The notes under the pieces: model-generated
Database searches by the model: none
What the model saw: only the letters and a program-made list of their open reading frames with translations
Told to the model about the DNA's origin: nothing
Program-made: the position numbers and the translations under genes
Shown: one piece after another, positions 3 through 63,637 of the stretch
Layout: every line of letters starts with the position of its first letter
How positions within the stretch are numbered: position 1 is the first letter of the stretch
Origin: a virus
DNA length: 64,000 nt
Virus record (IMG/VR): IMGVR_UViG_3300013117_000027
Direction: 5' to 3' (one strand)

Positions 3-3000
3 GTTCATCTTGCTCTTGATCAAAGAAATAATAAAGTTAATCCTGATGCACAGAAATTAAACCTAATGAGATCTGCTAGGAATAAGAGAGTATTAGAGTT
101 AAAAGTTATTCAAACAGCTATCAATCTCGCTCTTGCTGGATCAAAATTAGACACAGATCATGGTAAAGATAAGTATTCAGGAACTAATCAACCAGCTTAT
201 TTATCAGACGACAAATCGTTGATAAGTGATACAAGGCTAAGAAGTTCCTTAGAAGGCGCGTCGTATCAACAACTAAGGAAGATGGCAGATCTTATAAGAA
301 AATACTTTAGACATTATACTAACGAAGAACAAATGAAACACGAAGAAGTTATCAATAAAGATACACCAAGTATACGTTTTTTCGAAGAGACTGTATACAC
401 TCTTGTTACACAGTTAATAATCTTAGGAGATGCTATAGCTGAGTTCGAATCTGGTAATCTTACTGTTACGTCATTATTAACCGACATACCTGAGATGGGA
501 TTACTAGATTGGTATAACTGGAGAAATATAGATGATATCAATGATAAGAAAATATCTTTAATGAGTGACTTCTTAGAAGAAGACACTAATAGAACTCGTG
601 GGTATAACCAAAAAATGTTTCCTACATTTAAGGTATTCTTTGTAGAAGAAGATGGTAAGACTATAAGCGTAGATGACTACTACGCTTATAACGCTGTACA
701 GTCTATAGACATTATTAAGAATAAGTATTCAGCATCTTCTACCGCTGTTATAAAATTAGGTAACGTATACGGTAATCTTACTAATAAGATATCTTTAATG
801 AAAGAATCTGATCAGATTCTAGACATACTTCTTAACCAAAGAGATAATAGAATATTCTTAGGAAGTCTAGATATTAAGCCAGGTGTTAAGATAATAGTAA
901 AAATGGGATACGGAGCTAATGATAGAGATCTTAAGATAGTTTTTATCGGTAAGGTAGTAGAGATGAGTGCTGGTCCTATCACTGAGTTAGTAGCTCAATC
1001 TTACGGTGCACAATTATCACATGAGATTACTAAGATGCACTTTGGAGTTCTTAACTCTAGAAAAGAACATGGAGATATAGCATCAGCTGTTTTAGACGCT
1101 ATACCATCATTAGATGGTCTAGGTAAACCATCACTCTTAGGATTAAATCCAGTTAATTATAGTGGAAGACGTAGCGCTTTCTATGATGGAACATTGTTTG
1201 ATAGATTCTTAATGTCTAATATAACTACAAGAGTTAATACCACGTTGTTTCAAGAAGATAATCCTAGAGATGAGAACATATACCTTCCGGTGGATCTGAT
1301 ACCTGATATTACAAAGAACGTTACATTCGACTGGATAGTTTATAATCAAACAGTATGGCAAGCTTTACATGAGTTAAGTCTTTATCACGATAATACTATT
1401 CCTATTATAAGACCTTATAATGATGGTATGTTCTCTACGTTGGATGACGCAAGAGAAACTATTGTAGTAGGTAAGAAGAGTGGGTGGTATAAACACACAG
1501 ATGCATTCAGATATACTACAAGAGATATCGATAAACTAGGTAACCTTATAGATGATTGGAACACTAAGTACTGGAAGTTCTTAATGGAATTAAGACAGAA
1601 GATACAGAAAACTAGAACTTTACTAATAGATGCACCATCTGGCCAAGCAGCTCCAAAAGATGTAATTCTTGCCGAGTACCTTGTTCAAGAAGGATTAATG
1701 AAGAAGGAAGTTCAAGAAGTAAGGAAGACTGGTATTGATGTTACTGTTACTATTACTAATTACTATCCAAGAGGCAAGTTAAAGAATTTACTTGTAGGTC
1801 TGTCTAGTAAACAGTTAGCTCTCGTAGTTACTAAAGCTATAGAAGATAATGCTCCTCAGGTAGACACTAGAAATCTTGGTACTATGCAATTACTCGTAGA
1901 CACTGTAGCTAGAGTTGTTCCAGGTATATGGGAAACTACAGCTAACAAACTAAGAACTTCTATATTAAAAGTAGGATTCAATGAAGCTATAAGTGATAGA
2001 AAAGCTGACGAAGTTATCGTCATGGAAAGTAGAGTATTTCAAAGAGCTAATTCTAGTCCAGGCACACCAACTGTTACTATAAGACATTCTATATTTGATG
2101 TTATACTTAACTTTGGTAGTGTGCCTCGACGATATGAGAATTTTGTACAAAGACTTAATGATCTTAAGCCTTATCAATTCTTAGGTGTGTCTGCTAAGGA
2201 GTTAGATAATAATCAAGATAAATTTGTTAACGATCCAAGATATAGAAAGATTCAACGTCAACATTTAATAACAGATACTAGTGATATTATATCTAACGAG
2301 ATAGTCTTATCTGAAGATTTTAACAACGCCGTGAAGGTATACTATTTATCAGAACCTAAGTTTTATACAGACTTAGGAAGTATAAGTGCTGATGATCAAG
2401 AGAAGTTATCATGGGACACTGTTAAAGCTTTTGGAGATACAAGAGATACAGACGTACGACTTCTAGAAACTTATCAGAAGAACATAGATACAAACTGGTA
2501 TGAGATACGAAAGTACAATGAGGAAGTTCTTGGTAAATATAGTACTATGTATAAGAAGAATAGAGAGTCAGATAATCAAAATAATAAGAACTATAAGATT
2601 ACAATGAACGAATTACCATCTTACAAGAAAGTTGGTATTAATCTTCTTATACGAGAAGTTGAAAAGATGTATAGAGGTAATATAACTATTATAGGAAATC
2701 CAGCTATAGAACCGATGGACATTGTTCATATAGAAGATTCTATGAATAACATGGATGGACCTATAGAGATAGAAGAAGTTATACATTCATTCTCTCCCAC
2801 AACCGGGTACACGACTACACTTACTCCTTCGTTAATAACATACGATAGAGATCCTATAGCTATGAGTGATCTTAGTGTTATACATAGAATACTTACAACT
2901 GCTGAAAGTAAGAGAAGTTCTACAAGGATGTGGGCATTCGCACAAGCAACTGCGGCTGGTATAGCTTCGACGTTCGCTATTGCTGACATAGTAGGTGGAA

Positions 3001-4252: not shown

Positions 4253-4761
4253 TGGATTTATTCGGAGGACGAGTAGATGTACATATGTCTTATGATGGAG
4301 ATCTAGAGTTTGAACAAGGCGATATCAAGTTGGTACGTGGTATAGATTATATAAAGCATCTTATATACAAGGTTCTTACAACAGAAAAAGGTGATTGGAA
4401 AATATATCCTCAAGAAGGTGGAAGTCCTGTAGTATTCTTAGGTGAACAAAACACTAGGGATACAGCTAAGTTACTAGAAGGACATTTAGTATCGTCATTA
4501 TCAGAATACGTTTTACCAGCTACAGTAGAAGCCAGAGTAGTTCCTATATCTCATGACTCAGTAAAGTGTTACGTTGATATTATTATATTAGGTCTTACTA
4601 TTGCACAAGTTCCATTTATGCTTGATTATATTAACGGTATAAAGTATGAAGACTTTGACGAGACAGTAGATACGGTAGTCGCATCTAAAGAGCACAGACC
4701 GAACGATAATCGTTCGCTCACAAATCCTAATCCGTATCTAGATAGAATAAGGAGACAATAA
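4252..4761 (+). CDS. gp25/gpW-like baseplate wedge protein
   Basis: 169 aa with a DLEFEQGDIKLVRG..LTTEKGDW..YP..G pattern; immediately upstream of baseplate J. Confidence 0.7.
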   Translation: MDLFGGRVDVHMSYDGDLEFEQGDIKLVRGIDYIKHLIYKVLTTEKGDWKIYPQEGGSPVVFLGEQNTRDTAKLLEGHLVSSLSEYVLPATVEARVVPISHDSVKCYVDIIILGLTIAQVPFMLDYINGIKYEDFDETVDTVVASKEHRPNDNRSLTNPNPYLDRIRRQ

Positions 4762-6026
4762 TGGCAACACGCAGAAACTTCATAGACGTACAGAATGACG
4801 CAAAGTATAGGTTAGAGAACTTCACACCTGTAACATCTTTCGAGAATCTAAGTACTTCTATGACTCTTATAAATATACTTAGTAACGAGACAGAGAAGTT
4901 GTATGATGAAGCTGAGTATCTTTTCAGTATAAATGATATAACAAGAGCTTATGGTAGAGATCTCGATAATATAGGAAGGATTATAGGATCCGAACGAGGG
5001 GATGCTACCACATCTAATGATATGACATATACTAATTTCTATTTTTATCTTGACACGAGGTTAGGAATAGATATAGGTACGTTAATCGATAGAGTTTATC
5101 CTACAAGTACTCACTATAATATTAGACAAAGATTAGAAGATCAAGGTTATATAGATAATAAAGATGTTCCTACTCAGTTAAAACTTCCTAGAGGTATGTA
5201 CGTGTCCAGCGACGATAGACGTATACTTTATACTACAGTTGAAGACGCTTATCTAACAAATGATTCTAACGAGGTATACGTTCCTGTCATAGCAACCGCT
5301 ACAGGATCCGGACAGAATGTTGGAGCTAATGTTATTATAAAGCATTCTCTTAACGAGGTTAATATTATAAAAGATCTATCTAAGTATATACTTTGTACTA
5401 ATAGATTCCCTATTACAAACGGATCGAATACTGTAAGTGATGATGACTATAGATATAATATGTCTATTAGTAGAATAAACCTTGGTGCGAACGAGGTAGC
5501 TATACGACAAGCCGCTCTTTCTGTACCAGGTGTTAGAAACGTTCTGTTTGAGCGCGCAAGATTTGGTAATGGTACATTTAATCTTATAGTAGAAGGTGTT
5601 AGTCCTCTTGTATCAGAAGGTCTTGTTACTACAGTAAAAGAGAGAGTCCAAAGTATCGTAGGTGGAGACTCAGTATATGTTCACAGACCTGAGTACATAG
5701 GCGTTGAACTGAACTTAGATCTTATTACAGAGGTAGGTACAGATACTGATCTGTTAAGAGAGACTGTTAGAAATGATATTATATCATATATAAATGATAC
5801 TACTATAGGCGGAAGACTTATATGGAACCAATTAGTAGATATTATTATAAGAGAGGGCGTTATAGACTTTGTTCTATCTTACTACAAGTTCGGAGAATAT
5901 GACATCTTTAACAAGATAAACCTTAACCAAATAGTATTAAGACCTTCTAATCAAGGTGCTAATTATAACGAGAAATTTTATATTGATGCGGGATTGTGTT
6001 CCATCTGTGTTAGGGAGCAGGGTTAA
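4761..6026 (+). CDS. Baseplate J-like protein
   Basis: Motifs RAYGRDLDNIG, VPVIATATGSGQNVGAN, NGSNTVSDDDYR, ALSVPGVRNV. Confidence 0.85.
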   Translation: MATRRNFIDVQNDAKYRLENFTPVTSFENLSTSMTLINILSNETEKLYDEAEYLFSINDITRAYGRDLDNIGRIIGSERGDATTSNDMTYTNFYFYLDTRLGIDIGTLIDRVYPTSTHYNIRQRLEDQGYIDNKDVPTQLKLPRGMYVSSDDRRILYTTVEDAYLTNDSNEVYVPVIATATGSGQNVGANVIIKHSLNEVNIIKDLSKYILCTNRFPITNGSNTVSDDDYRYNMSISRINLGANEVAIRQAALSVPGVRNVLFERARFGNGTFNLIVEGVSPLVSEGLVTTVKERVQSIVGGDSVYVHRPEYIGVELNLDLITEVGTDTDLLRETVRNDIISYINDTTIGGRLIWNQLVDIIIREGVIDFVLSYYKFGEYDIFNKINLNQIVLRPSNQGANYNEKFYIDAGLCSICVREQG

Positions 6027-8309: not shown

Positions 8310-10527
8310 AGATATATTTGTTAGAGCAGTAGCATCAGGAGACGGAACAGGTCTCGACTGGTATAATGCTTATACTACATTACAAGATGCTCTTACAGAG
8401 GCAATGGCTGAGCCTGCAGCTAACACAGTTAACGTATATGTTGATGATGATATTTACACGTTGGCTTCTCTTACAGTCAGTCATAACTCAATTAATCTGT
8501 ATGGTGGTAATATTCTTACTGCTGACGTTGTTGTGTCTGGATATAATGAGATACCTGTTGGTACAACTTTTAAAAGTATTGTTTACCTAGAAGACTCAGT
8601 GTACGTACAAAGTGGTGTATTTATAACAGATTCTGTTAGGTTTATTAACTCTTCTGGAGGCTACGCTATCCAAGGTGAAGATCTTACTGACATACTTCTG
8701 AAGAAAGTTAACTTTGAAACAGACTACGGTATTGATACTAGTGGTAATCTTAGATGTGAGTTCATAAATGCTATATCGTATACTCCTCAGGAGTATACAT
8801 ATGGATTTGGAGGTTCTTACATAGCAGAGTCTGGATATTCGGACGCATTGTCTGGCAACATATTTATTAATAGTGTCGGAGAAGAGACAGTAGTTAATAA
8901 TTCCTCAATGATAGGTTACTATAACACTATAGTATTTAATGGTATCAACGACAATGAATGTATTATAGACGACGTACTTATAAAGCAGGCATCTAATGGT
9001 ATAGTTTATCAATCAGTGGGCGGTAGTGGTACATTGCGTACCAATAATATCGTTATATACGATACAGATAAATCTTTCTTATTTAAAGATACTACTATAT
9101 CAGGTGGATTAAACGGAGAGATAGGTAACTGTACATTATATACACCTTATTCATTCTCTATATCTCCTATGATAACAGGTCTTATACAGATAACAGATTC
9201 TATAATGTCCGGCGAAATGATCTACGGAGACGGTTCTCTTACTCTTACTACAGAGTACACTTTATTAGATACTACTCCCAGTGGTTACGGATTTGTTCCT
9301 GGAACAGGTATAGTCTATGGAGATCCTAAGTATATAGATGTAACAAAAGGTGACTTCAGTCTTGGAATAGGTACTGCTGACGATAGAGTATCATCTGATG
9401 GTCTTAATGTGGGATCTTATACAGAGATAGGAAGAAGTATACAATTGTCTGACTCCAAAGGATTTAGATTATCAGATTCAAGTGTAGAAGGATATGATAT
9501 GTTCTTACATAAGAGCGACGAGACCGTCGTATGGTCAGATCATATGAAAGAGATTCCTATGGCCACATTTAGAGATAATAATGGTACGTTATCGTATGTT
9601 TATAATCATACTACTACAGTAGTATTGTCTGGTGTTGTTACTATTCCTGCATTTTCTAGAGAACCTTCTTTAAACGATTGGATGTACGAATGGGACTATG
9701 AGATAATGAACAGTCCTGGTATCGAGAATAATCCTAGGATCATTCCTAAGTCTATTATAGATATTACAAATATCTTACAGAATATAGACTACGGTAAGAA
9801 TAAATCTAATATAAGCGTAAGAGCATTTAAGAATATAGATAATAGAGGCATTAGTTATGACTATGACTCTTCTAACAATACAAGTAAAATCGTATGGTCT
9901 TTGGATGGAGATCAGATGTTAACAAAGACAGACTTTTGGAACGGAAACGTTATAGATAAGTATCCACTTGTTCCTCCTATTCATCCTTCTGGTGAGAAAT
10001 TATTTATTAAACCTTCTGGACTTATACCTTATGGAGTTAATAAATATGTGACAGAGGATGATCCTGATACTATCCTAGAAAGTGTAAATGATGACGGTTC
10101 GTTTGAATGGTTATCTACAGAGAAACATAGGAAGTGGGATTTAAAAGGTATTTTAACTCATAAGGGAACTATGTATGTAACAGCATCTTTTGCTGACCAA
10201 GCATCTACAACTCCTTACGTTCTAATATATCCTAGTAGAGGTTACTATGCTGATTATCAATGTCCTGATCCTACAAAGTTAGAATTACACGATGATAACA
10301 ATGATCCAAGAGGCATAACTGTTTATGAAGACGGAAGCATTCTTATTAGCAACTACGATGTTATGTCATCCGGAATTGCTAACTATGTGAATATATTTCA
10401 CTATAAGCCATGCTTTGACTATGCTTTAAAAGAAAATAATAACTATATGAATACAAAACTTATACTTCGTGAGGCTTATGACGAAGTAACATTAGAACAG
10501 GCATTAGAAGAGCCTGATACACCATAA
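8299..10527 (+). CDS. Tail-associated protein with right-handed beta-helix (pectin-lyase-like) N-terminal domain
   Basis: N-terminal IFVRAVASGDGTGLDWYNAYTTLQDAL and closing GDPKYIDVTKGDFSL are typical beta-helix caps; propeller-like C-terminus (DPRGITVYEDGSILISN). Confidence 0.6.
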   Translation: MANKDIFVRAVASGDGTGLDWYNAYTTLQDALTEAMAEPAANTVNVYVDDDIYTLASLTVSHNSINLYGGNILTADVVVSGYNEIPVGTTFKSIVYLEDSVYVQSGVFITDSVRFINSSGGYAIQGEDLTDILLKKVNFETDYGIDTSGNLRCEFINAISYTPQEYTYGFGGSYIAESGYSDALSGNIFINSVGEETVVNNSSMIGYYNTIVFNGINDNECIIDDVLIKQASNGIVYQSVGGSGTLRTNNIVIYDTDKSFLFKDTTISGGLNGEIGNCTLYTPYSFSISPMITGLIQITDSIMSGEMIYGDGSLTLTTEYTLLDTTPSGYGFVPGTGIVYGDPKYIDVTKGDFSLGIGTADDRVSSDGLNVGSYTEIGRSIQLSDSKGFRLSDSSVEGYDMFLHKSDETVVWSDHMKEIPMATFRDNNGTLSYVYNHTTTVVLSGVVTIPAFSREPSLNDWMYEWDYEIMNSPGIENNPRIIPKSIIDITNILQNIDYGKNKSNISVRAFKNIDNRGISYDYDSSNNTSKIVWSLDGDQMLTKTDFWNGNVIDKYPLVPPIHPSGEKLFIKPSGLIPYGVNKYVTEDDPDTILESVNDDGSFEWLSTEKHRKWDLKGILTHKGTMYVTASFADQASTTPYVLIYPSRGYYADYQCPDPTKLELHDDNNDPRGITVYEDGSILISNYDVMSSGIANYVNIFHYKPCFDYALKENNNYMNTKLILREAYDEVTLEQALEEPDTP

Positions 10528-10537
10528 GGAGATTAAG

Positions 10538-11797
10538 ATGGCATATCCACAAGGTAACGCATCTCAAAATATGGACTTAGGGATTTACTCGTCTGACTTT
10601 AGTCCTGATATAACCGTAGCTGGTATAGTAGATAATCATACAACTGTAAATAAGTTAGGATTACGTAATTCATTAGGTAACCAAATTTCGTTGCTACAAA
10701 ATTTTGTATGTGAGCAATATTTAGGACGTCTATCTAGTCCTGTTGGTAGTGGATATATAAACTATCTAAGAGGTGGTCAGTATAGTAATATACATTACGG
10801 TATAGATCCAACAGGTACAGGTTCTTATACTTATGCTGAACCTGGTATCCTAATGACGAAGTATGTATACGATACTTCTACAAGTGGGGTAACTATAAGT
10901 GAGAGTGATATTAACTCTTATAGAACAATAGGAACAAGAACTTATCAAAGTAAAGCAAATGGTAGTTGGATCCAATTAAACGACTACGCAACAGATGGTA
11001 CATGGTCACAATGGGGCTCTGGACTTTTAAAAATGGTTGCAGGATATGGTAACGATAGTTCTAACTTTTCTAGTTTTATAATGAAATCTACAGGAGATAT
11101 CATCTTAGATACTGGTCCAGATCCTTACACATCAGAGGTAATAATAAGTGGTAATCTTTCCCTCCCTACAGTTAATGCTACAATGACTATACATAATGAC
11201 TTCGGTAATAATCAATTATTTATGGACGGAGCCACATTCGCACTTAATAACTATTCTACAGGCAATAATACACAACTATTTCCTAGTTCAATACAGATGA
11301 CACAAAATGCATCTATATACGGATTTAATAATTTTGCTTTGAACGGTAACGGTCCTATTATACTTAACTCAGAACGAGGATCTTTCAATGAATCTTATCT
11401 TACTATGAGTGGTGAGAATATATATATTCAAGCTGATAGAATGTTCTTAGAAGGTGAAGTATATATAAGTGGTACATTGTATAGTGATGGGGATAACAAT
11501 ATAATGCTTAGACAAAATCCTTTGATATCTTTATCACAACAAGCTTATACGTCTGTAGCAGCAGGAAATATTCTTGTAGGTTCAGGTACTACAAGCTACA
11601 TGACTTTAAAATTTGAAGAAACAGAACCTGATACAATAGAGATATACGGAAGAAATCACTTAAGATTAGGCGCACTACAAAACTTACTGTTAGGATACAA
11701 TACTAATATAATCATAGAAGGTGGACTACCATCATCTGATCCATCTGTATCAGGTGCGTTGTATGAGTCATCTGGTGTAGTAATGATCTCATTATAA
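10538..11797 (+). CDS. Putative tail fibre/spike protein
   Basis: G/S/N/T-rich beta repeats; C-terminal LPSSDPSVSGALYESSGVVMISL resembles a common phage fibre-tip motif; GGAG RBS. Confidence 0.5.
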   Translation: MAYPQGNASQNMDLGIYSSDFSPDITVAGIVDNHTTVNKLGLRNSLGNQISLLQNFVCEQYLGRLSSPVGSGYINYLRGGQYSNIHYGIDPTGTGSYTYAEPGILMTKYVYDTSTSGVTISESDINSYRTIGTRTYQSKANGSWIQLNDYATDGTWSQWGSGLLKMVAGYGNDSSNFSSFIMKSTGDIILDTGPDPYTSEVIISGNLSLPTVNATMTIHNDFGNNQLFMDGATFALNNYSTGNNTQLFPSSIQMTQNASIYGFNNFALNGNGPIILNSERGSFNESYLTMSGENIYIQADRMFLEGEVYISGTLYSDGDNNIMLRQNPLISLSQQAYTSVAAGNILVGSGTTSYMTLKFEETEPDTIEIYGRNHLRLGALQNLLLGYNTNIIIEGGLPSSDPSVSGALYESSGVVMISL

Positions 11798-19580: not shown

Positions 19581-20962
19581 TGAATAGTTACGTAAGAAAA
19601 ATAAATGAGAAGTATATATCTGATTTTAAATTTAGAATACAATCTGGTATAGCAGAGCTTGTCCGTAGTACAGATGCTACAGTTTTAAAAGTTATATTAC
19701 AAGAGGTTAATAGACTTTTTAGAATAATGTCAGGAAGACTTGTTTCAAGATTAGACATTCCTATGCCTGATAGATTCCCTGATGCTGACAAGTTTAACAG
19801 TTTTATATCTGATATAGATATAGATCTTGATAAAGTATTTACTGCTCAAGAGTTAGTCTCTAACGATGTTCAGAATGTCGTTAATTTTAACTCTCTTGAA
19901 AGAGAAAAAGCTAGAAGAAATCTAGCAGACGCTCAGAAGAAAGTTTATAATGTATATATAAAGTCTAAGATGGGTTTAGATGGTGCAACTGTTATAAGAG
20001 AAGACTTTAGAGATGATAGGTTGTATGCTGAATCTAATGGTGTACAGATAAATCTTAACAAAGAGAATCTTACACTTAAAGTAGAAGAAAGTTTTGTAGA
20101 TAGAAAGTCTGTTCATAAAGATAAGGTTGATATATATTTTACGGAGTTACCAGACGAGGGTTTCAAACTTTATCCTAATAATAGAAACTTAGCTTTAGGA
20201 TCATTCTGGAAGCGCGGTACCAGTGATATTCATTTCACTGCTAAAAACGACGAAGGAAGATACAAGACTTATATGGTAGATGAGAACGATGGAGTTAACG
20301 TCGGTAGCACTCAATTCGAAGCTGTTTATACGTACGAACAAGCATCTAATCTTAGTATCAGAGATAGAGTTGAACGCGAGTTAGGTAATTATCTTAATCT
20401 TCATCCTAGCTTTATAATGATAGACGATGCTATATCTATTCGTAGAACTTATATTACTCAGAAGTCAATGGAAGGTATAGAGGAAGTTATTAACCCTAGT
20501 ATTAAACTTGTAGTACCTTTTAAAGGAGAAGCTCCGGTTGGTACAACGTTTATAGTAGACTTAGAAGGTAACGATGCTAATGTTATTCCTACGATTGATG
20601 TTGCTAAGTCTTTTGTTTACGACGAAAATAATAGGAAAGTTAAATTTCAAAAGATACCTGATTCTAAAGTGGATGAGTACGGTAAGACAGGTAGATATGA
20701 GTTAGTCTTTAACGAACCATTAAGACCTACAAGGATGGAACTTATATGTTTCTTTAACTCTAATGCTTGGGCTGATATAACAGAATATATGATTTCTGAA
20801 TATTTATTCGAGAAAATTAAAAAGATAACTTTACAGACTAATCTAGGTAATATAGAAACTATTTTAAGAAAGAAAGCATACGTGTTCGTTGATGCTGAAA
20901 GTGATCTTTTAAATGAAAGACGTAGAGCTAACGACGTAATGCAGTTTAAAGGAGTTAAGTAA
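19580..20962 (+). CDS. Virion structural protein (paralogous family)
   Basis: KFNSFISDIDIDLDKVF...EDFRD...INLNKENLTL pattern. Confidence 0.5.
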   Translation: MNSYVRKINEKYISDFKFRIQSGIAELVRSTDATVLKVILQEVNRLFRIMSGRLVSRLDIPMPDRFPDADKFNSFISDIDIDLDKVFTAQELVSNDVQNVVNFNSLEREKARRNLADAQKKVYNVYIKSKMGLDGATVIREDFRDDRLYAESNGVQINLNKENLTLKVEESFVDRKSVHKDKVDIYFTELPDEGFKLYPNNRNLALGSFWKRGTSDIHFTAKNDEGRYKTYMVDENDGVNVGSTQFEAVYTYEQASNLSIRDRVERELGNYLNLHPSFIMIDDAISIRRTYITQKSMEGIEEVINPSIKLVVPFKGEAPVGTTFIVDLEGNDANVIPTIDVAKSFVYDENNRKVKFQKIPDSKVDEYGKTGRYELVFNEPLRPTRMELICFFNSNAWADITEYMISEYLFEKIKKITLQTNLGNIETILRKKAYVFVDAESDLLNERRRANDVMQFKGVK

Positions 20963-36155: not shown

Positions 36156-39100
36156 ATGAATTATCAAGAAGTAATAAAAGAACTTCATGGAAAACTCGAA
36201 GACTATCTTAAGTCTCAAGGAGTTGAAATAACATCAAATGGATTCTTCTGCTGTATTCATCCGGATCATCCAGACAGATATCCTTCTGCTTCTCTTAACT
36301 ACGGTAACGAGTTAAAAGGAAAGGTATTCCACTGCTTTAGTGGTAGAAGTCATGATGGAAACATATTTACTGCTGCTCATTGGTTAGAAGGTCTACCTTT
36401 ACAAGGACATGACTTTTGGGAGCATACAATGGTAGAGCTATGTAAAAGATATAACATAGACTATGAGCCATTGGAAGTAGATGAAGGCACAAGAAGACAG
36501 TATCAAGCTTATAAAGCCACAAGAGATGCTGCTAAGATTATACATAACATGATCTATGATGGTGATGATCTGAAAGATCACGTAGGTATACGTCATCTTC
36601 TAGAAAGAGGAGTAACAAGAGAAAGTATAGAGAAGTGGGGTATAGGTGTCCTTACATCTTTCAAAGACTATAAGCACGGTATTCAACAGCTAGGCCACAA
36701 TGATGAGAACTTCCTGTACTCTAAGGACTTGATGAACAAGAATCTGTTCAACAGAGACAGCTTCATCATACCTATACATGACCACTCTTCAAGAGTTGTA
36801 GGGTTTGTTACAAGGAACTGTAGGATTAATCCTAATGATCATGTGACAAGAAAGTATATTAATACTATTAATACTGACATCTATGAGAAGGGTAGCATAC
36901 TCTTTGGATATCATAGAATAAAGAACATGAGCGGGCCTCTCTACATAGTAGAAGGTTACTTAGATGCTATCATGTTAGAGCAAGCTGGTCTACAAAAAGT
37001 TGTAGCAATAGGTGCTACTGTTCTTACTAACCATCACATTACAGAAACTTTGTTTAATGATCAGACAGATATAATACTATGTCTAGATGCTGACAAGGGT
37101 GGTGAGGATGGAGTTAAGTTAGCATTAGAAAGAATGGCGTGCTACCGTAAGTTCAACGTTACTATCATAGATCTACCTAGAGACTACGATCCTGACACAT
37201 ACGTTAGAGAGTTTGGAATAGAAGCTTTCCAAGCGTTAGAAAAGTTGTCTCCATTTGCATGGTCTTTAAAGCACAGTGAGTACAGTGACGACATGACAAT
37301 TGTAGCAGAAAAGATGATACCTATCATCGCAGCAGAAGAGTCTTCTATCACTAGACTTAGAATGATAAGAGATTTGTCTAACTATACAGCTATACCTGAA
37401 CTAGATATCAGAAGAGATGTAGACGCATTAGTATCTAAAGAAGATGATAAGTACTTACAAGGTATACGTGATATTAATCAGTATGCTGGTGCTCAGTTAT
37501 CTAGACGTAAGGTCAGTGACACTAAGAGTATTCTAAGAGATGCTCTTAATAAAGTAGAGATCTTAGACGAGAAACACAATAGTGTAAAAGATATGCAGAA
37601 TGAGTATATGAATAAGTTACAACATCTAGATAATAAGTTACAAGAAGGTGACTTTAAGTACGGACTTCTATGTCCAAAACATAAAGGTATTGAGACTACA
37701 TTAGATGGTATACCTTACTGGACTTGTATGACACTGTTCGGCGGAAGACCATCGGCAGGAAAAAGTTTGAGACCTGGAACACAGGTATTAATGTACAATG
37801 GTAATATAAAAAAGATAGAAGATGTTAAAGTAGGTGATCAATTAATGGGACCAGACTCTAATCCTAGAAACGTTCTTGCATTAGGTACAGGTGAAGAGGA
37901 GATGTATGATATCATACCTAAACGTGGCATGAAGTGGGGATGTAATGAACCACATATACTGTCTCTTCGTATGAGTTCTGATAATGGTGATGTATATAAA
38001 AAAGATGATATTATTAACTTACCAATAAAGGATTATATGTGTAAAAATACTAAGTTTAAACATCATGCTAAACAATGGAGAACTGGTTGGGAGTTACCAA
38101 CTAAACGTATACCATATGATGCATATTATATAGGTAGTTGGTTAGGTGATGGTAGTAAAGATAGTGCTGAGATAACAACTGGTGATCCAGAGTATGTAGA
38201 ATCTTACTATAAAGCGTTTGCTAATAAGTTTGGATTTAGAATGTCTAAATATCATCAAGAACGTAATACATACGTATATAGAATGTGTAAAACTTCTGGT
38301 AAAACTAATCCGCTCTTAAATTATTTAAGAGATAAGTGTTTGGTTAATAATGAGAAACGTATACCTAAAGAATACTTACATAACTCAAGAACCATAAGAC
38401 TAGAACTATTAGCTGGACTTATAGATACTGATGGATATCTTGTAAGAAAAGATTCTGGAACATATGAAATTACTACAAAATACGCACGTCTAAGAGATGA
38501 TATACTTTACCTTGGAAATTCATTAGGATTCTTATCTACATATAGTGATAAGAAAGTAACCATAAAAGAAGGAGATGTTAGAACTTACTATAGAATACAT
38601 ATATCAGGTAATATACGTGAAGTTCCAGTTAAGATAGAACGTAAGAAGTCTATAACTTCTAATAGAAGAACTAATCATCAAAACGTTGGCTTTGATATAA
38701 AACATACTGGAAAAGGTAAGTACTACGGAGTTGTTCTTGATAATGATCATCTATTCTTACTAGCAGATGGTACCGTGACACATAATACGGCTTTCATGAC
38801 AGACTTGTCTCTAGATATAGTAGAAGCTAACGACGACGCTGCTATCTTTTACATGTCTATAGACGATAACATGGATTTACTAACAACCAAGATGTTAGCT
38901 GTAAGAAGTGGTCTATCTACTACTGAGATAAAAGGTTACAAAGATCTTAGAGGTGAAGACAGAGATTCTTACCATGAAGCTATGCAGTTCTTAAAGAACA
39001 ATGCTGACAGGTTTATCATAGCTGACGCTATACAAGGAAACAGTGTAGACGCATTAGAGAATCATGTAAGATGGTTTTGTAGAGAGTTCAAAGACCAGAA

Positions 39101-39575
39101 GAAAGTGTTCTTACTAGATAACTTTCACAAACTTAGGATGGAGATAAGAGGTCAGACAAGAAAGAGCGACGCTATCAGTGATACGTCTCAACAGATTAAA
39201 GAGATTACTCAGTTAAATGACATACATATAATGTCTACAGTAGAGCTTAGAAAGCTTCAGACTAATACTGATAGACCTACAAGGAATGATATGCAAGGTA
39301 GTGCTAAGCTAGACTACGATGCAGATGTTATAGGACTTGTTCACAATGATATGCAGGTGAATAGGAATACAAGACTTGTTCACTACCAAGATGTTCACGG
39401 AAAATCGAGAGCGATGCCATGGATAGAGTTATCAATAGATAAGAACAAGATAAACGGTAAGGACTCACAGATAGTGTATAAGTACAATAAGCACAACATG
39501 CAGTTCTCCGAAGGTAGTACTAAAGACTTTTATAAGTTAAAAGATCAGATGAAACAACGTAACATAAACTTCTAA
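36156..39575 (+). CDS. DnaG-type primase / DnaB-type helicase fusion, intein-containing
   Basis: Zn finger (CCIHPDH..FHCF), TOPRIM (VEGYLD, CLDADKGG, DPD), Walker A GRPSAGK/T, helicase motifs LLDNFH, DMQGSAKLDYDAD, KNK. Confidence 0.92.
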   Translation: MNYQEVIKELHGKLEDYLKSQGVEITSNGFFCCIHPDHPDRYPSASLNYGNELKGKVFHCFSGRSHDGNIFTAAHWLEGLPLQGHDFWEHTMVELCKRYNIDYEPLEVDEGTRRQYQAYKATRDAAKIIHNMIYDGDDLKDHVGIRHLLERGVTRESIEKWGIGVLTSFKDYKHGIQQLGHNDENFLYSKDLMNKNLFNRDSFIIPIHDHSSRVVGFVTRNCRINPNDHVTRKYINTINTDIYEKGSILFGYHRIKNMSGPLYIVEGYLDAIMLEQAGLQKVVAIGATVLTNHHITETLFNDQTDIILCLDADKGGEDGVKLALERMACYRKFNVTIIDLPRDYDPDTYVREFGIEAFQALEKLSPFAWSLKHSEYSDDMTIVAEKMIPIIAAEESSITRLRMIRDLSNYTAIPELDIRRDVDALVSKEDDKYLQGIRDINQYAGAQLSRRKVSDTKSILRDALNKVEILDEKHNSVKDMQNEYMNKLQHLDNKLQEGDFKYGLLCPKHKGIETTLDGIPYWTCMTLFGGRPSAGKSLRPGTQVLMYNGNIKKIEDVKVGDQLMGPDSNPRNVLALGTGEEEMYDIIPKRGMKWGCNEPHILSLRMSSDNGDVYKKDDIINLPIKDYMCKNTKFKHHAKQWRTGWELPTKRIPYDAYYIGSWLGDGSKDSAEITTGDPEYVESYYKAFANKFGFRMSKYHQERNTYVYRMCKTSGKTNPLLNYLRDKCLVNNEKRIPKEYLHNSRTIRLELLAGLIDTDGYLVRKDSGTYEITTKYARLRDDILYLGNSLGFLSTYSDKKVTIKEGDVRTYYRIHISGNIREVPVKIERKKSITSNRRTNHQNVGFDIKHTGKGKYYGVVLDNDHLFLLADGTVTHNTAFMTDLSLDIVEANDDAAIFYMSIDDNMDLLTTKMLAVRSGLSTTEIKGYKDLRGEDRDSYHEAMQFLKNNADRFIIADAIQGNSVDALENHVRWFCREFKDQKKVFLLDNFHKLRMEIRGQTRKSDAISDTSQQIKEITQLNDIHIMSTVELRKLQTNTDRPTRNDMQGSAKLDYDADVIGLVHNDMQVNRNTRLVHYQDVHGKSRAMPWIELSIDKNKINGKDSQIVYKYNKHNMQFSEGSTKDFYKLKDQMKQRNINF
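37764..38786 (+). mobile_element. Intein (341 aa, LAGLIDADG) in the helicase Walker A motif
   Basis: GK|SLRPGTQV...LLAGLIDTDG...VTHN|T. Confidence 0.92.
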
Positions 39576-59903: not shown

Positions 59904-60046
59904 AACGGGGGGTAGGATTCGAACCTACATACTACACATATCCTTGATGAATACCCATGTTTGGTAGCGGCGCTTCACCCGTTAGGGATCCTTTTAAGTA
60001 GGGAATTTAGAGTTCCCCGTGTCTACCATCATTCCACCACCCCCGC
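59904..60046 (-). tRNA. Amber (CUA) tRNA-like gene with 72-nt variable region
   Basis: Acceptor GCGGGGG/CCCCCGT, class II-type D arm GTGGAATGATGGTAGACAC, anticodon arm GGGAA-CTCTAAA-TTCCC, T arm GTAGG-TTCGAAT-CCTAC; no encoded CCA. Confidence 0.8.
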
Positions 60047-60051
60047 ATAAG

Positions 60052-60118
60052 TCGCACTAGCAGGAATCGAACCTACGAAACAGGACAAGAACATCCCTGT
60101 TCCCAACTCCATGGTGCA
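60052..60118 (-). ncRNA. D-armless tRNA-like element
   Basis: TGCACCA/TAGTGCG acceptor-like stem, one hairpin AACAGGG/TCCTGTT, canonical T arm GTAGG-TTCGATT-CCTGC. Confidence 0.5.
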
Positions 60119-60129
60119 AAAAAAAAAAA

Positions 60130-60256
60130 AAGACATGCTGGATTTTCACCAGCTCCACACTTACTTCGGGACCTGTTTTTCATACGTATACGATCCTCAC
60201 ATTCCACGTTACACGCGCGGTGTGGCCTAGCAGCATGAATAACATGCTTATGTCTT
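60130..60256 (-). ncRNA. Expanded tRNA-like structured RNA
   Basis: AAGACAT/ATGTCTT closing stem, GCATG-TTATT-CATGC hairpin, CCACAC/GTGTGG branched domain, T-arm-like GCTGG-TGAAAAT-CCAGC. Confidence 0.45.
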
Positions 60257-60676: not shown

Positions 60677-60791
60677 ATATACCTTTAAGTTAGCCATGGT
60701 ACCAAGATAGTTGTCGAGCTGTGCTCCCATACACAGCGATTTAATTCAGATTGCCAGTTCACTCTGCGATAGGTTTTATTTATTTGTTCGA

Positions 60792-61625
60792 CTATAGGTT
60801 ATGTTTAAGAAGGAACTCAGGATTGATACTACCATCGTATAAGAACTTAAGTTCTAATACTTCGCTTGGTTTAATATCGATCTCATCAATATTACGTTTA
60901 GCGTTAAGTTTAGACTCGTCTAAAAGTTCATGATATGAGTATAGTTTCTTTCCTTTTCTTCCAGTTTTTTGTCTCTTACTAAATTGTTCCATAAATAGTT
61001 CTAAGTCTTCTTTAAGATAGTTTTGTCTTTCGTCTTCGAAGTTTAAAGTTGCATCGTCTCCATATAGATATAATGCTAATCTATCATATGACTTAGCAGC
61101 CTCAATCTCATCGTCATAACATTTACGATATCGTTTACCCATATATGTTATATGAGTCTCGTATGTATTAAATTTTGTAGGAAATACTCCACAATATTTG
61201 TGTGTAGTTTTTCGTTTACCTTGATGTGATATAGCTGATCTACCGTAAACTTTCTTTTTCTCTTCTTTAGACATTTCCTTAAATCTTTTAACTTGAGATT
61301 TAGACATCTTTTCACGGACTTCTTTTGAGAATACTTTTAACCCATCTTCTTGGTTTATCATGTTATAACCTATTGTAGGATCCATACTATTTAAAGTATC
61401 TATCCATCTCGCTTCAGCACGTATAAGTTCTTTTTCACATGAAACTTTTTCTACAACTTGAAACTCAAAGTTTTCAAAACCGTATTTTCTTAATGCTCTA
61501 TGAAATGCATATTCAGTATGTTTATAAGCTCTTTTATGAGTGCTTATCCGTTCTTCTAAAGACTTAGTGGTAAGACCTATATAGATCTTACTATTTACTT
61601 TGTTAGTAGCCTTATAAATATTCAT
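60792..61625 (-). CDS. Free-standing GIY-YIG homing endonuclease with AP2-like DNA-binding domain
   Basis: NIYKATNKVNSKIYIGLT..R..H, GYN, YCGV...EAAKSYD...YGDDATLNF; AAAGGA RBS. Confidence 0.88.
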   Translation of the reverse strand: MNIYKATNKVNSKIYIGLTTKSLEERISTHKRAYKHTEYAFHRALRKYGFENFEFQVVEKVSCEKELIRAEARWIDTLNSMDPTIGYNMINQEDGLKVFSKEVREKMSKSQVKRFKEMSKEEKKKVYGRSAISHQGKRKTTHKYCGVFPTKFNTYETHITYMGKRYRKCYDDEIEAAKSYDRLALYLYGDDATLNFEDERQNYLKEDLELFMEQFSKRQKTGRKGKKLYSYHELLDESKLNAKRNIDEIDIKPSEVLELKFLYDGSINPEFLLKHNL

Positions 61626-61700
61626 TATAATCCTTTCATTATACAATATCTAGACTTGTTATCCAAGTCTTATACGTTATACTATACTATAATGTTCGGA

Positions 61701-62792
61701 TTAAAGCGACCATTTTAACAAGAATTCTGGGTTCACGCATTTAAAACTGATTCTACTGTCAGTCTTAAGTCTCCATACATCTCCTTCTTGTTTAATATCT
61801 GCTAACGTACTTCTTGATTTAGAAAGTTCTACAATGTCTGTCATCGAACCAGGAAGTCTTATATCTTCATCACGTATAGGTACGTGTTGTAGATCTACCT
61901 TGGCGCACATTGTTATAAACTTATCATAAGGTACATTCTCACCTTTATCTATATCATATATGTTGAAGGCATAGAAATCTAGTTCATTAAGTCTATACTT
62001 ATTTTTTTGAATGGCAGGTCCTACTATCTCACCTTGGATAGCATAGTTGCCACCAAGACGTCTTAACTTAGATCTTATGTTCTTCTTATAAAATATTGAC
62101 CAATAGTTATTTGTTGTTGGTCTCTTGAGCCATATGTTTCTAGAACATACAAACTCTTCAGTCTTATATGTGATACCTAAGAACTTCTTACGTACCATAG
62201 CAAATGTTGCTGATTGACCGTCTAACTTTTCTGTACGATAGAATATCAAATCTTTAAAGCGTCTCACAATAGATGGAGAAGATTGTATTCTTGTTTCATC
62301 TGTCTTCTTAAGGAAGTCTGGCCATCCACCCTTACGTTTTGTTGTAAGTTTTCTGAACCATTTATACCTAAGGAAGTATTTATATATACGTCCATGTTTA
62401 GCAGCTTCTGCAGCTTGTGCAGCCATTGCTTTTTCTGTAGCAAGTTCTGGATCATGCTTAACGACGTCTAAGATATCTGTTACGTCATCACCTTCTTTAA
62501 CAGACTCTTTTAATTTATTAGGGAAAGCAGTTATTGGTAATGCTAATCCCTGAGCGGCGAATCCCATAAACTTTGCTGTCTTAACACGGTACTTTCTTGA
62601 TTCCATGAACTCAAACTGTTCCCATGGAGGAAGTATACTGTCTATTTCAAAGTATACACAACGATCACCTTCTTTAAATTCGCCCTTTTTTACTATACAT
62701 TGCCAGCCAAGTATGTATGCCTTCTCGATAGTCTTAGCGCCTTTAATAGACTCTATCTGTTTGACTATCTGTATTGATGCTAGTTTTCTCAT
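61701..62792 (-). CDS. RNA ligase (Rnl2/DRB0094-like with N-terminal OB-like domain)
   Basis: RKLASIQ, YFEIDS, motif I TEKLDGQS, QGEIVG, FYAFNI, EGDVWR, SFK. Confidence 0.88.
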   Translation of the reverse strand: MRKLASIQIVKQIESIKGAKTIEKAYILGWQCIVKKGEFKEGDRCVYFEIDSILPPWEQFEFMESRKYRVKTAKFMGFAAQGLALPITAFPNKLKESVKEGDDVTDILDVVKHDPELATEKAMAAQAAEAAKHGRIYKYFLRYKWFRKLTTKRKGGWPDFLKKTDETRIQSSPSIVRRFKDLIFYRTEKLDGQSATFAMVRKKFLGITYKTEEFVCSRNIWLKRPTTNNYWSIFYKKNIRSKLRRLGGNYAIQGEIVGPAIQKNKYRLNELDFYAFNIYDIDKGENVPYDKFITMCAKVDLQHVPIRDEDIRLPGSMTDIVELSKSRSTLADIKQEGDVWRLKTDSRISFKCVNPEFLLKWSL

Positions 62793-62798
62793 TGTTCT

Positions 62799-63059
62799 CT
62801 ACTTGTATTCGTTAATCGTTTTTATGATAATATCTTCACGATTAATACCAGCCCATCTAGTGTGCTCGTTACCTTCATCATCTATAAGAATGATTGTAGG
62901 TGTGCGTGTTATATTATACTTAGTTCTTTCCTGCGAGTCTTTCTTCGCAGCATTTACCTTTGTTACAGGTATCTCGGTCTTTGTAGATACGTTATTTAGT
63001 ATCGATTCCATTAGCCGACATGGACTACATGTGGCCTGTGAAAAGAATAATAGTCTCAT
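62799..63059 (-). CDS. Thioredoxin-like protein
   Basis: FSQATCSPC, ITRTPTIIL. Confidence 0.8.
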   Translation of the reverse strand: MRLLFFSQATCSPCRLMESILNNVSTKTEIPVTKVNAAKKDSQERTKYNITRTPTIILIDDEGNEHTRWAGINREDIIIKTINEYK

Positions 63060-63637
63060 AGTTTCTCTTTCATATGTTTTAAACATTCTTTTACTCTATC
63101 ATCCATTGTTACAGATGTTATCTCAATGAAGTTCTTACAAGGAAATAACTCTTTTAATATGAATGTTATCTTAGCATCAGCTGCAGCTCTCCACTTCTCA
63201 TCGAAGTCTCGTGCAGGTCTTACTCCATCACTCACTGGTTTTATAACAGGAGGTAGATGAAATATGATGTCGTATCTCTGAGGAGTATTTATACGTGTTA
63301 GTTTTTTAAAGGTGTCATTCATCCATATAATATGCCTGGGATCGTTAACATCCCTAAGTTCCAGAGCGTATAGATACCCTAGATGCACGGGACTGTCTGT
63401 GATAATAATGTCTACATCTTTGCCCACAGAGTCTTCCCAATCTATCTGCTTTTCCATTATTCTAAATTGGTCTAGTAAGTTTTCTACAGGACCATACTTT
63501 ACTTGGTACCTTCTAGCGTACTCTTGTATAAGTTCTATGTTCTTGTAGTCTTTTATACCTCTACATGTTCCGGAGAGAACCCTAGCTGTTGATGTCTTAC
63601 CAGAGCCAGGAGTTCCTACAAATCCTATTCTTTTCAT
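63056..63637 (-). CDS. NadR/AAA_28-like P-loop kinase/ATPase
   Basis: GFVGTPGSGKTS, EYAR, IITDSP, DGVR; start at MKRIG. Confidence 0.8.
   Translation of the reverse strand: MKRIGFVGTPGSGKTSTARVLSGTCRGIKDYKNIELIQEYARRYQVKYGPVENLLDQFRIMEKQIDWEDSVGKDVDIIITDSPVHLGYLYALELRDVNDPRHIIWMNDTFKKLTRINTPQRYDIIFHLPPVIKPVSDGVRPARDFDEKWRAAADAKITFILKELFPCKNFIEITSVTMDDRVKECLKHMKEKL

Follow-up and report, generated by a model that had tools for sequence, protein, structure and literature searches.

What use could a large phage have for a tRNA-shaped gene that would read UAG, carries a variable region far beyond the class II size and sits in a genome that ends its genes with TAG? The gene in question, element A, is a 143-nt sequence with the anticodon CUA located on the minus strand at 59904..60046 of the window, by which we mean the whole 64-kb stretch of DNA analysed. 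The window, which corresponds to bases 1-64000 of a 139,679-bp JGI metagenome contig (sample 3300009320) in reverse complement, derives from a large uncultured tailed phage and encodes a baseplate wedge protein, virion proteins, glycosyltransferases, an RNA ligase, several homing endonucleases, a sigma factor and an intein-bearing primase-helicase. The last of these (36156-39575, plus strand) carries an intein-like insert at approximately residues 524-920, and this part has matches of 31-40% identity to helicase and intein regions of many unrelated phages. tRNA(CUA) genes of standard-code phages such as XacN1 have no known purpose (PMC5852040), and the oversized tRNA-like RNAs of phage T4 are annotated as small stable RNAs whose function is not given.

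The tRNA body of element A

The Rfam tRNA model RF00005 aligns over the full length of 59904-60046 (minus strand; model positions 1-71), with a score of 41.6 bits (gathering score 29 bits) and E = 2e-5 for the 64-kb window. Element A is not detected by ARAGORN at default settings, and no tmRNA was detected in the region. The acceptor stem, GCGGGGG/CCCCCGU with a G1.U72 pair, is followed by U8 and G9; the D arm, GUGG-AAUGAUGGUAG-ACAC, is followed by G26; and the anticodon arm (GGGAA-CUCUAAA-UUCCC) and T arm (GUAGG-UUCGAAU-CCUAC) are accompanied by a discriminator U, with no encoded CCA. The conserved tRNA core of U8, A14, G18G19, U33, purine 37 and T-loop UUCGAAU is present, and all 21 of 21 stem pairs are standard when the class II 13:22 position is set aside. 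The first-pass annotation, made from the letters of the window, had described intact acceptor, D, anticodon and T arms and a UAG-reading loop, CU-CUA-AA. Both descriptions are borne out, the former by the end-to-end RF00005 match and the latter by a 7-nt loop with anticodon CUA, U33 and A37.

That annotation contained neither an origin for this body nor the counterpart of its long arm in a related phage that is described below. Among 462 distinct tRNAs from the loci fetched, the best matches to the 5' half of element A are tRNA-Leu(UAA) genes, and 17 of the 25 best D-arm matches are tRNA-Leu. Twenty phage tRNA-Leu(UAA) genes, comprising T4 tRNA-Leu (NC_000866 72370-72456) and 19 from IMG/VR loci, align with element A column by column through the acceptor, D, anticodon and T arms. 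Element A shares with this family an acceptor that begins GCG.., a class II D arm (G)GUGGAAU..GGUAGACAC, the frame of the anticodon arm and the T arm. Judged from this alignment, its body derives from the phage family of tRNA-Leu(UAA) genes. A Gly-like acceptor identity (GCG.., U73) is no more than a lead: the tally behind it was biased, because the tRNA-Gly genes were drawn mostly from a single pattern scan, and GCG also begins the genes of the Leu(UAA) family.

Element A departs from its family at several places. The anticodon loop reads CUCUAAA, whereas that of the family reads CUUAAAA; the D loop is 2-3 nt longer; the variable region is ~72 nt, compared with 10-17 nt in the 20 family members; and the 3' end is ..GU-U-CUA, where 19 of 21 family genes have ..G(C/U)-A-CCA. 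In total, at least six changes separate element A from the family, each of them unpaired or pairing-preserving, such as C72 to U, which yields a G.U pair. Set beside bacterial-type tRNA-Leu, element A possesses the class II body and a Leu-type D arm but lacks A73, having U73 instead, and has CUA in place of a leucine anticodon (NAG or YAA). For bacterial LeuRS, the chief determinant is A73. With U73 and no CCA where the family has A73 and CCA, element A has thus lost both a leucine mark and the encoded CCA. A73 is also named in one published study (PMC2377443).

Normal-armed relatives of this tRNA type are readily found, including Leu-type tRNA(CUA) genes with variable arms of 11-15 nt and A73 on viral or metagenome contigs (L012, L013/L030, L021/L031 and L027). 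Insert-bearing homologues are another matter. IMG/VR was scanned for exact patterns taken from the D/anticodon region, the T/acceptor region and element B (below), and for UACC..GGGTATTC..T-loop; no such homologue was returned. The metagenome scan gave 24 matches, of which only four distinct ones were tRNAs; each of these has arms of normal size, and the scan did not return the contig of the window itself; scans of bacterial and archaeal genomes gave 0 matches; and blastn against 50,697 phage records gave no match. The first-pass annotation had proposed to look for homologues with covariation in the extra arm; none of these searches yielded an insert-bearing homologue, and hence covariation evidence for the insert is lacking. 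Nor was a natural tRNA with so large a variable region described in the literature searched.

The enlarged variable region, the array and their relatives

Natural variable regions are 4-5 nt long, or about 10-25 nt in class II tRNAs. That of element A (59929..60000, minus strand) comprises about 72 nt, which upholds the first-pass estimate of a region far above class II size, and exceeds that of the family by ~60 nt; alignment with the 20 tRNA-Leu(UAA) genes places this extra ~60 nt at the tip of the variable arm. The region contains a hairpin, UACC-AAACAUG-GGUA followed by UUC, and is richer in GC (44%) than the window (34%) and the 3' flank and adjacent spacer (21%). The pairings TACT/AGTA, ATCC/GGAT, TGAA/TTCA and TACC/GGTA named in the first-pass annotation are present, but its description of the arm as structured is unsupported by folding energy: the insert folds at -12.5 kcal/mol against -14.3 +/- 2.7 kcal/mol for shuffles (z = +0.67), and for the whole of element A z = 0.06.

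The insert also includes CUUAAAA, the loop heptamer of the tRNA-Leu(UAA) family, 2 nt after the anticodon arm. It is possibly a trace of a partial duplication; the chance of such an occurrence, estimated after the fact, is ~1%. A spare anticodon arm within the insert was rejected, as the heptamer cannot be placed as a hairpin loop and there is no 7-nt loop with U33 geometry. Further candidates for the insert were also rejected. A ribozyme, riboswitch or intron found no Rfam match at E <= 10; a repeat or mobile element is opposed by the absence of a second copy in the window and by a flanking AAGGAU repeat that is at chance level; and a small-RNA target gave, at best, complementarity of 15/16 nt within the window (E = 0.4).

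Element A is the last of three tandem tRNA-like genes on the same strand, in the order C, B, A, with 4-5 nt between B and A. Element B (60052..60118, minus strand; 67 nt) consists of an acceptor stem, a long variable hairpin and a perfect T arm, with the D and anticodon arms deleted, and was detected by ARAGORN only at a relaxed threshold. Element C (60130..60256, minus strand; 127 nt) has a 7-bp closing stem, a D-position hairpin, a branched middle and a T-like arm, GCUGG-UGAAAAU-CCAGC, followed by 13 U; its anticodon arm is absent and its fold has z = -1.7. The T-like arm and U run of element C are also matched by a terminator scan, and the T-like arm resembles the T arm of A', a gene of the related phage L041 described below. 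Elements B and C cannot decode. Moving upstream from the array, two small ORFs precede a GIY-YIG homing endonuclease gene (60792..61646, minus strand; PHROG homing-endonuclease families, E = 9e-22; Pfam GIY-YIG), which lies between the array and an RNA ligase gene (61701..62792, minus strand; PF09414/PF21189; phrog_968, E = 1.6e-65) located ~1.7 kb upstream of element A. A search of the DNA ahead of the array detected no promoter of the sigma-70 type.

An ~80-nt element follows directly on the GIY-YIG stop codon in the window (60713-60792, minus strand) and recurs in L041 (776-862) and in a further relative, L015 (about 2434-2520). It is near-identical in these three phages, whose proteins are 66-85% identical, and takes the form GUCGAAC...AUCGCAGAGUGAACUGGCAA...GCUGUG-loop-CACAGCUCGAC. 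Candidate roles are those of a structured RNA, a terminator or the homing-site region of the endonuclease. The ATG of a predicted 90-aa ORF falls inside this element, and the ORF therefore probably starts later.

L041 (GCA_003358065.1), found via the 104-aa ORF, is the only relative analysed that reaches the array; identical neighbour proteins also occur on four other contigs, the longest of 140,858 bp. Relatives found through the RNA ligase (82% and 67% identity) have contigs that end before it, and no relative was found for the 84-aa ORF. The proteins of L041 are 66-85% identical to those flanking the array, and its flanks match the window in the GIY-YIG gene, the conserved 80-nt element, the 104-aa ORF homologue and an HNH gene; between the ligase gene and the HNH gene, gene content varies among relatives. 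L041 carries A' (866-966), a 101-nt tRNA-shaped gene scoring 41.2 bits, with the non-decoding loop CGUGGAG (G33) and a variable region of 30 nt, and B' (about 1039-1143, plus strand), which folds into a cloverleaf unaided and has the anticodon UAU, a 33-nt variable region, A73 and an encoded CCA. No counterpart of element A follows B' in L041.

Against its full-length homologue B', element B shows a 34-nt deletion between GGAGU repeats, which removed the D and anticodon arms. In the 10-bp variable hairpin and the T arm, B and B' differ by three compensatory double changes and two single changes, and 97.7% of cells are paired, compared with 41-55% when the partners are slid. The hairpin and T arm of B are thus kept by compensatory changes, and on this comparative evidence extra-long variable arms are a selected feature of this phage lineage, even in a copy that does not decode. 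A link between the arms of the two phages is provided by a hairpin, UACC-loop-GGGUAUUC (that is, GGUA and then UUC), common to the insert of element A and the variable region of A'. Counting both strands, the 64-kb window contains the octamer GGGTATTC once, within the insert, and the 2.3-kb L041 sequence contains it twice, each time within the array, against 0.07 expected. Because the motif is shared while the bodies of A and A' are otherwise as unlike as any two tRNAs, the UACC..GGGUAUUC hairpin looks like a module common to different tRNA chassis.

Expanded tRNA-like genes also occur more widely. An IMG/VR scan for a Leu-type D arm with a T loop 75-105 nt downstream recovered 26 distinct genes (34 sites) of 122-149 nt, with paired acceptors, matching T stems and, in 19 of the 26, A73; examples are found in L125 (10126-10269, minus strand), L141 (1967-2113, plus strand) and L096 (1046-1181, plus strand). 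These genes conserve a GUGGUGGAAUU-GGUAGACAC D arm, and a large central domain replaces the anticodon arm, which is present in canonical form in 0 of 26. Their recurrence suggests that large phages often rebuild tRNAs into something else. Kinship of the insert with their central domains was rejected, the best z of 3.4 in 34 comparisons not being significant.

Other expanded genes have different layouts. In L005, a 198-kb phage contig, a 131-nt gene (20530-20660, plus strand; 35.2 bits) lies inside a normal tRNA cluster and bears a ~60-nt well-paired hairpin in its variable region, a 6-nt anticodon loop, ACAUAA, and G1.U72. A tRNA-like gene with an expanded centre is present on a large-phage contig, L069. 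In the 392-kb phage contig L082, tRNA genes at 10094-10269, 10379-10556, 2740-2890 and 4729-4843 (all minus strand), including Tyr (GUA), Gly (UCC) and opal-reading (UCA) tRNAs, have anticodon-loop inserts of about 40-105 nt. Two of these inserts begin with the identical sequence CGGAAUUnUyCACCGAAACGrA, and the inserts are too short for group I introns; the insert of element A has no similarity to them. In Rfam 15, the expanded genes described here match the general tRNA model or nothing, and have no family of their own.

Stop codons and competing explanations

Read with table 11, the 64-kb window resolves into 59 non-overlapping ORFs that together occupy 94.6% of it; their stops are TAA in 42, TAG in 15 (25%, structural genes included) and TGA in 2, a tally that spans 64 of the ~140 kb of the phage contig. 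As TAG terminates 15 of 59 window genes, the phage is not recoded, in agreement with the first-pass annotation, which had treated TAG as an ordinary stop and wholesale recoding as unsupported. No gene in the window requires an in-frame TAG, and TAG-split genes are not above chance; of the 15 genes that end in TAG, 3 share their frame with the following gene, as many as chance would give. Nor are back-up stops enriched after TAG: beyond the 15 TAG codons the next stop is mostly 0-7 codons on, not above the TAA case, with a median distance of 6 codons for TAG and 3.5 for TAA. Element A is not an agent of code change, and any UAG read-through would be incidental.

Two further observations concern the stop codons. 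A thioredoxin-like ORF (62799-63086, minus strand) is terminated by TAG, with the RNA ligase gene (61701-62792, minus strand) in the same frame two codons further on. The two genes occupy different frames in L015, the 82% relative, and the in-frame case in the window is probably due to chance. TGA is nearly absent as a stop (2 of 59) yet TAG is frequent (15 of 59), which is unusual at 34% GC. The scarcity of TGA may reflect a host in which TGA is a sense codon or terminates poorly.

The locus holds a tRNA-Leu gene that appears to stand between two states: it has a full cloverleaf and a stop-reading anticodon, yet its leucine marks are lost and its arm is of domain size, and it adjoins look-alikes that are already without the decoding half. 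Our leading explanation, held tentatively and at somewhat below an even chance, is that element A is a stable mimic, derived from tRNA-Leu, that does not decode and offers its arm as a handle to a partner. Elements C, B and A would be transcribed together, and host RNase P and 3'-end enzymes would excise element A, given that its acceptor/T top half is intact. The product would persist as a tRNA look-alike with its enlarged variable arm exposed, and the arm could be grasped by a phage or host protein, or by a tRNA-directed nuclease or modifying enzyme. We rank this explanation first because the helices were kept while identity marks and loops changed, the neighbours and the genes of the relative are non-decoding yet conserved, the insert carries the shared motif and a GC content of 44%, and the window has no need for UAG reading. 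The Leu chassis is, from the 26 genes of the IMG/VR scan, widely reused in non-decoding look-alikes. On the other side, a perfect anticodon arm with a canonical loop is superfluous in a mimic, the insert has no homologue or covariation, and its fold is no better than that of shuffles. The first-pass annotation had listed a decoy among its options; this option now fits the context best, with array neighbours that do not decode and arms kept by compensatory changes, but no partner protein for the arm was identified among the window ORFs scanned.

The intact cloverleaf and canonical CU-CUA-AA loop would also suit a working amber suppressor, weak or conditional, charged by a host synthetase and reading UAG at a low level or during one stage of infection, with the arm tolerated or serving as a sequestering or recruiting handle. 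The normal-armed Leu-type tRNA(CUA) genes of L012, L013/L030, L021/L031 and L027 lend this some plausibility, as do the CUA genes of XacN1, which lack identified targets (PMC5852040), and the suppressor tRNAs in standard-code relatives of recoded phages (10.1101/2021.08.26.457843). Amber suppressors tagged with aptamers are active in E. coli (PMC7590224), and since such grafted-hairpin suppressors still translate, a long arm alone is compatible with decoding. We nevertheless regard a suppressor as doubtful. The A73 needed by LeuRS is replaced by U73, position 1:72 is a G.U pair and CCA is not encoded; a quarter of the genes end in TAG without adaptation to read-through, and no window gene needs an in-frame TAG; the array neighbours do not decode, and element A is absent from L041. 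The conditional suppressor of the first-pass annotation thus keeps a place among the explanations, weakened by the loss of A73 and CCA and by the unadapted TAG-ended genes. A more specific form of the idea, which we consider improbable, treats the arm as a naturally occurring handle on an amber tRNA that can still decode: a protein, from phage or host, that docked on the UACC..GGGUAUUC hairpin would sequester the tRNA or bring a synthetase to it, confining UAG read-through to a stage of infection.

Element A could instead be a dead gene of the tRNA-Leu family, enlarged by a variable-arm insertion or an internal duplication and decaying as element B has. The shuffle-level fold of the insert and the degraded 3' end (U72, U73 and no CCA) are consistent with decay, and its array neighbour B is a deletion derivative. 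Element A is, moreover, absent from the relative, the ligase-HNH region is variable in gene content, and CUUAAAA 2 nt past the anticodon arm hints at a partial duplication. However, no stem pair is broken despite at least six changes from the family, GC content is 44% in the insert but 21% in the neighbouring spacer, and the insert bears an array-specific motif in common with L041; we judge decay unlikely. Most improbable of all is an intervening sequence, which would splice itself out, or be excised by an endonuclease and sealed with the help of the nearby RNA ligase, to leave a tRNA of normal size. The tRNA introns of Lak megaphages (PMC6784885), the anticodon-loop inserts of L082 and the RNA ligase gene 1.7 kb upstream provide some precedent and opportunity, but the insert lies beyond a complete anticodon arm, at the variable-arm tip, rather than within the anticodon loop. 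Its 72 nt are too few for a group I or II intron, no Rfam ribozyme or intron matches at E <= 10, it does not resemble the L082 inserts, and full excision would strip a class II body of its arm. The non-canonical intron suggested in the first-pass annotation is accordingly unsupported. Were element A merely a decaying tRNA, the finding would be ordinary; were a partner of the arm found, it would give a handle on the whole class of rebuilt tRNAs.

Comparison with known systems

Among natural amber-reading genes, the suppressors of XacN1, those of phages using code 15 and the Leu-type CUA genes resemble element A in presenting a canonical CUA loop on a phage genome. XacN1 is a standard-code jumbo phage with two CUA suppressor genes whose targets have not been identified (PMC5852040), and shares the standard code with the window; suppressor tRNAs can also be present in standard-code relatives of recoded phages (10.1101/2021.08.26.457843). 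Recoded phages themselves carry in-frame TAG codons, whereas the window has none, and the Leu-type CUA genes have arms of 11-15 nt and A73, in contrast to the ~72 nt and U73 of element A.

Unexplained inserts of tens of bases are known from phage tRNA genes in the Lak megaphages, where conserved introns have been called 'enigmatic' (PMC6784885). In this respect they resemble element A; however, the Lak introns were called by tRNAscan with eukaryote settings, whereas the insert of element A lies in the variable arm. The tRNA mimic YrlA (RF02553) combines an acceptor/D/T top half with a large extra domain, which is the layout of the 26 Leu-chassis genes. In YrlA a Ro-binding helix replaces the anticodon arm, whereas element A keeps that arm and has its extra domain in the variable arm. 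Element A has no match to RF02553, and no Ro60-like gene was found among the 30 window ORFs scanned.

The T4 RNAs rnaC (species 1, 139 nt) and rnaD (species 2, 119 nt) offer a parallel in size and setting. They end a tRNA cluster that contains the GIY-YIG gene segB, and, like element A, are oversized tRNA-like genes at the downstream end of a cluster with a GIY-YIG neighbour. Against a tRNA model, rnaC scores only 17.5 bits; of a tRNA it retains just the T arm and acceptor end, with no anticodon arm, whereas element A forms a full cloverleaf; no sequence similarity was found between element A and rnaC or rnaD.

A similar architecture is found in engineered molecules, compared here together with class II tRNAs and allo-tRNAs. 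Amber suppressors that carry aptamers at the tip of the variable arm remain active in E. coli and can be sequestered when a protein binds (PMC7590224). As in element A, an amber-reading tRNA bears an added hairpin domain on the tip of a long variable arm. The engineered suppressors are man-made, with a defined aptamer and proven activity, whereas the domain of element A is natural and known from sequence alone. If its arm does serve as a handle on a decodable tRNA, element A would be a natural counterpart of the engineered aptamer-tagged suppressor tRNAs.
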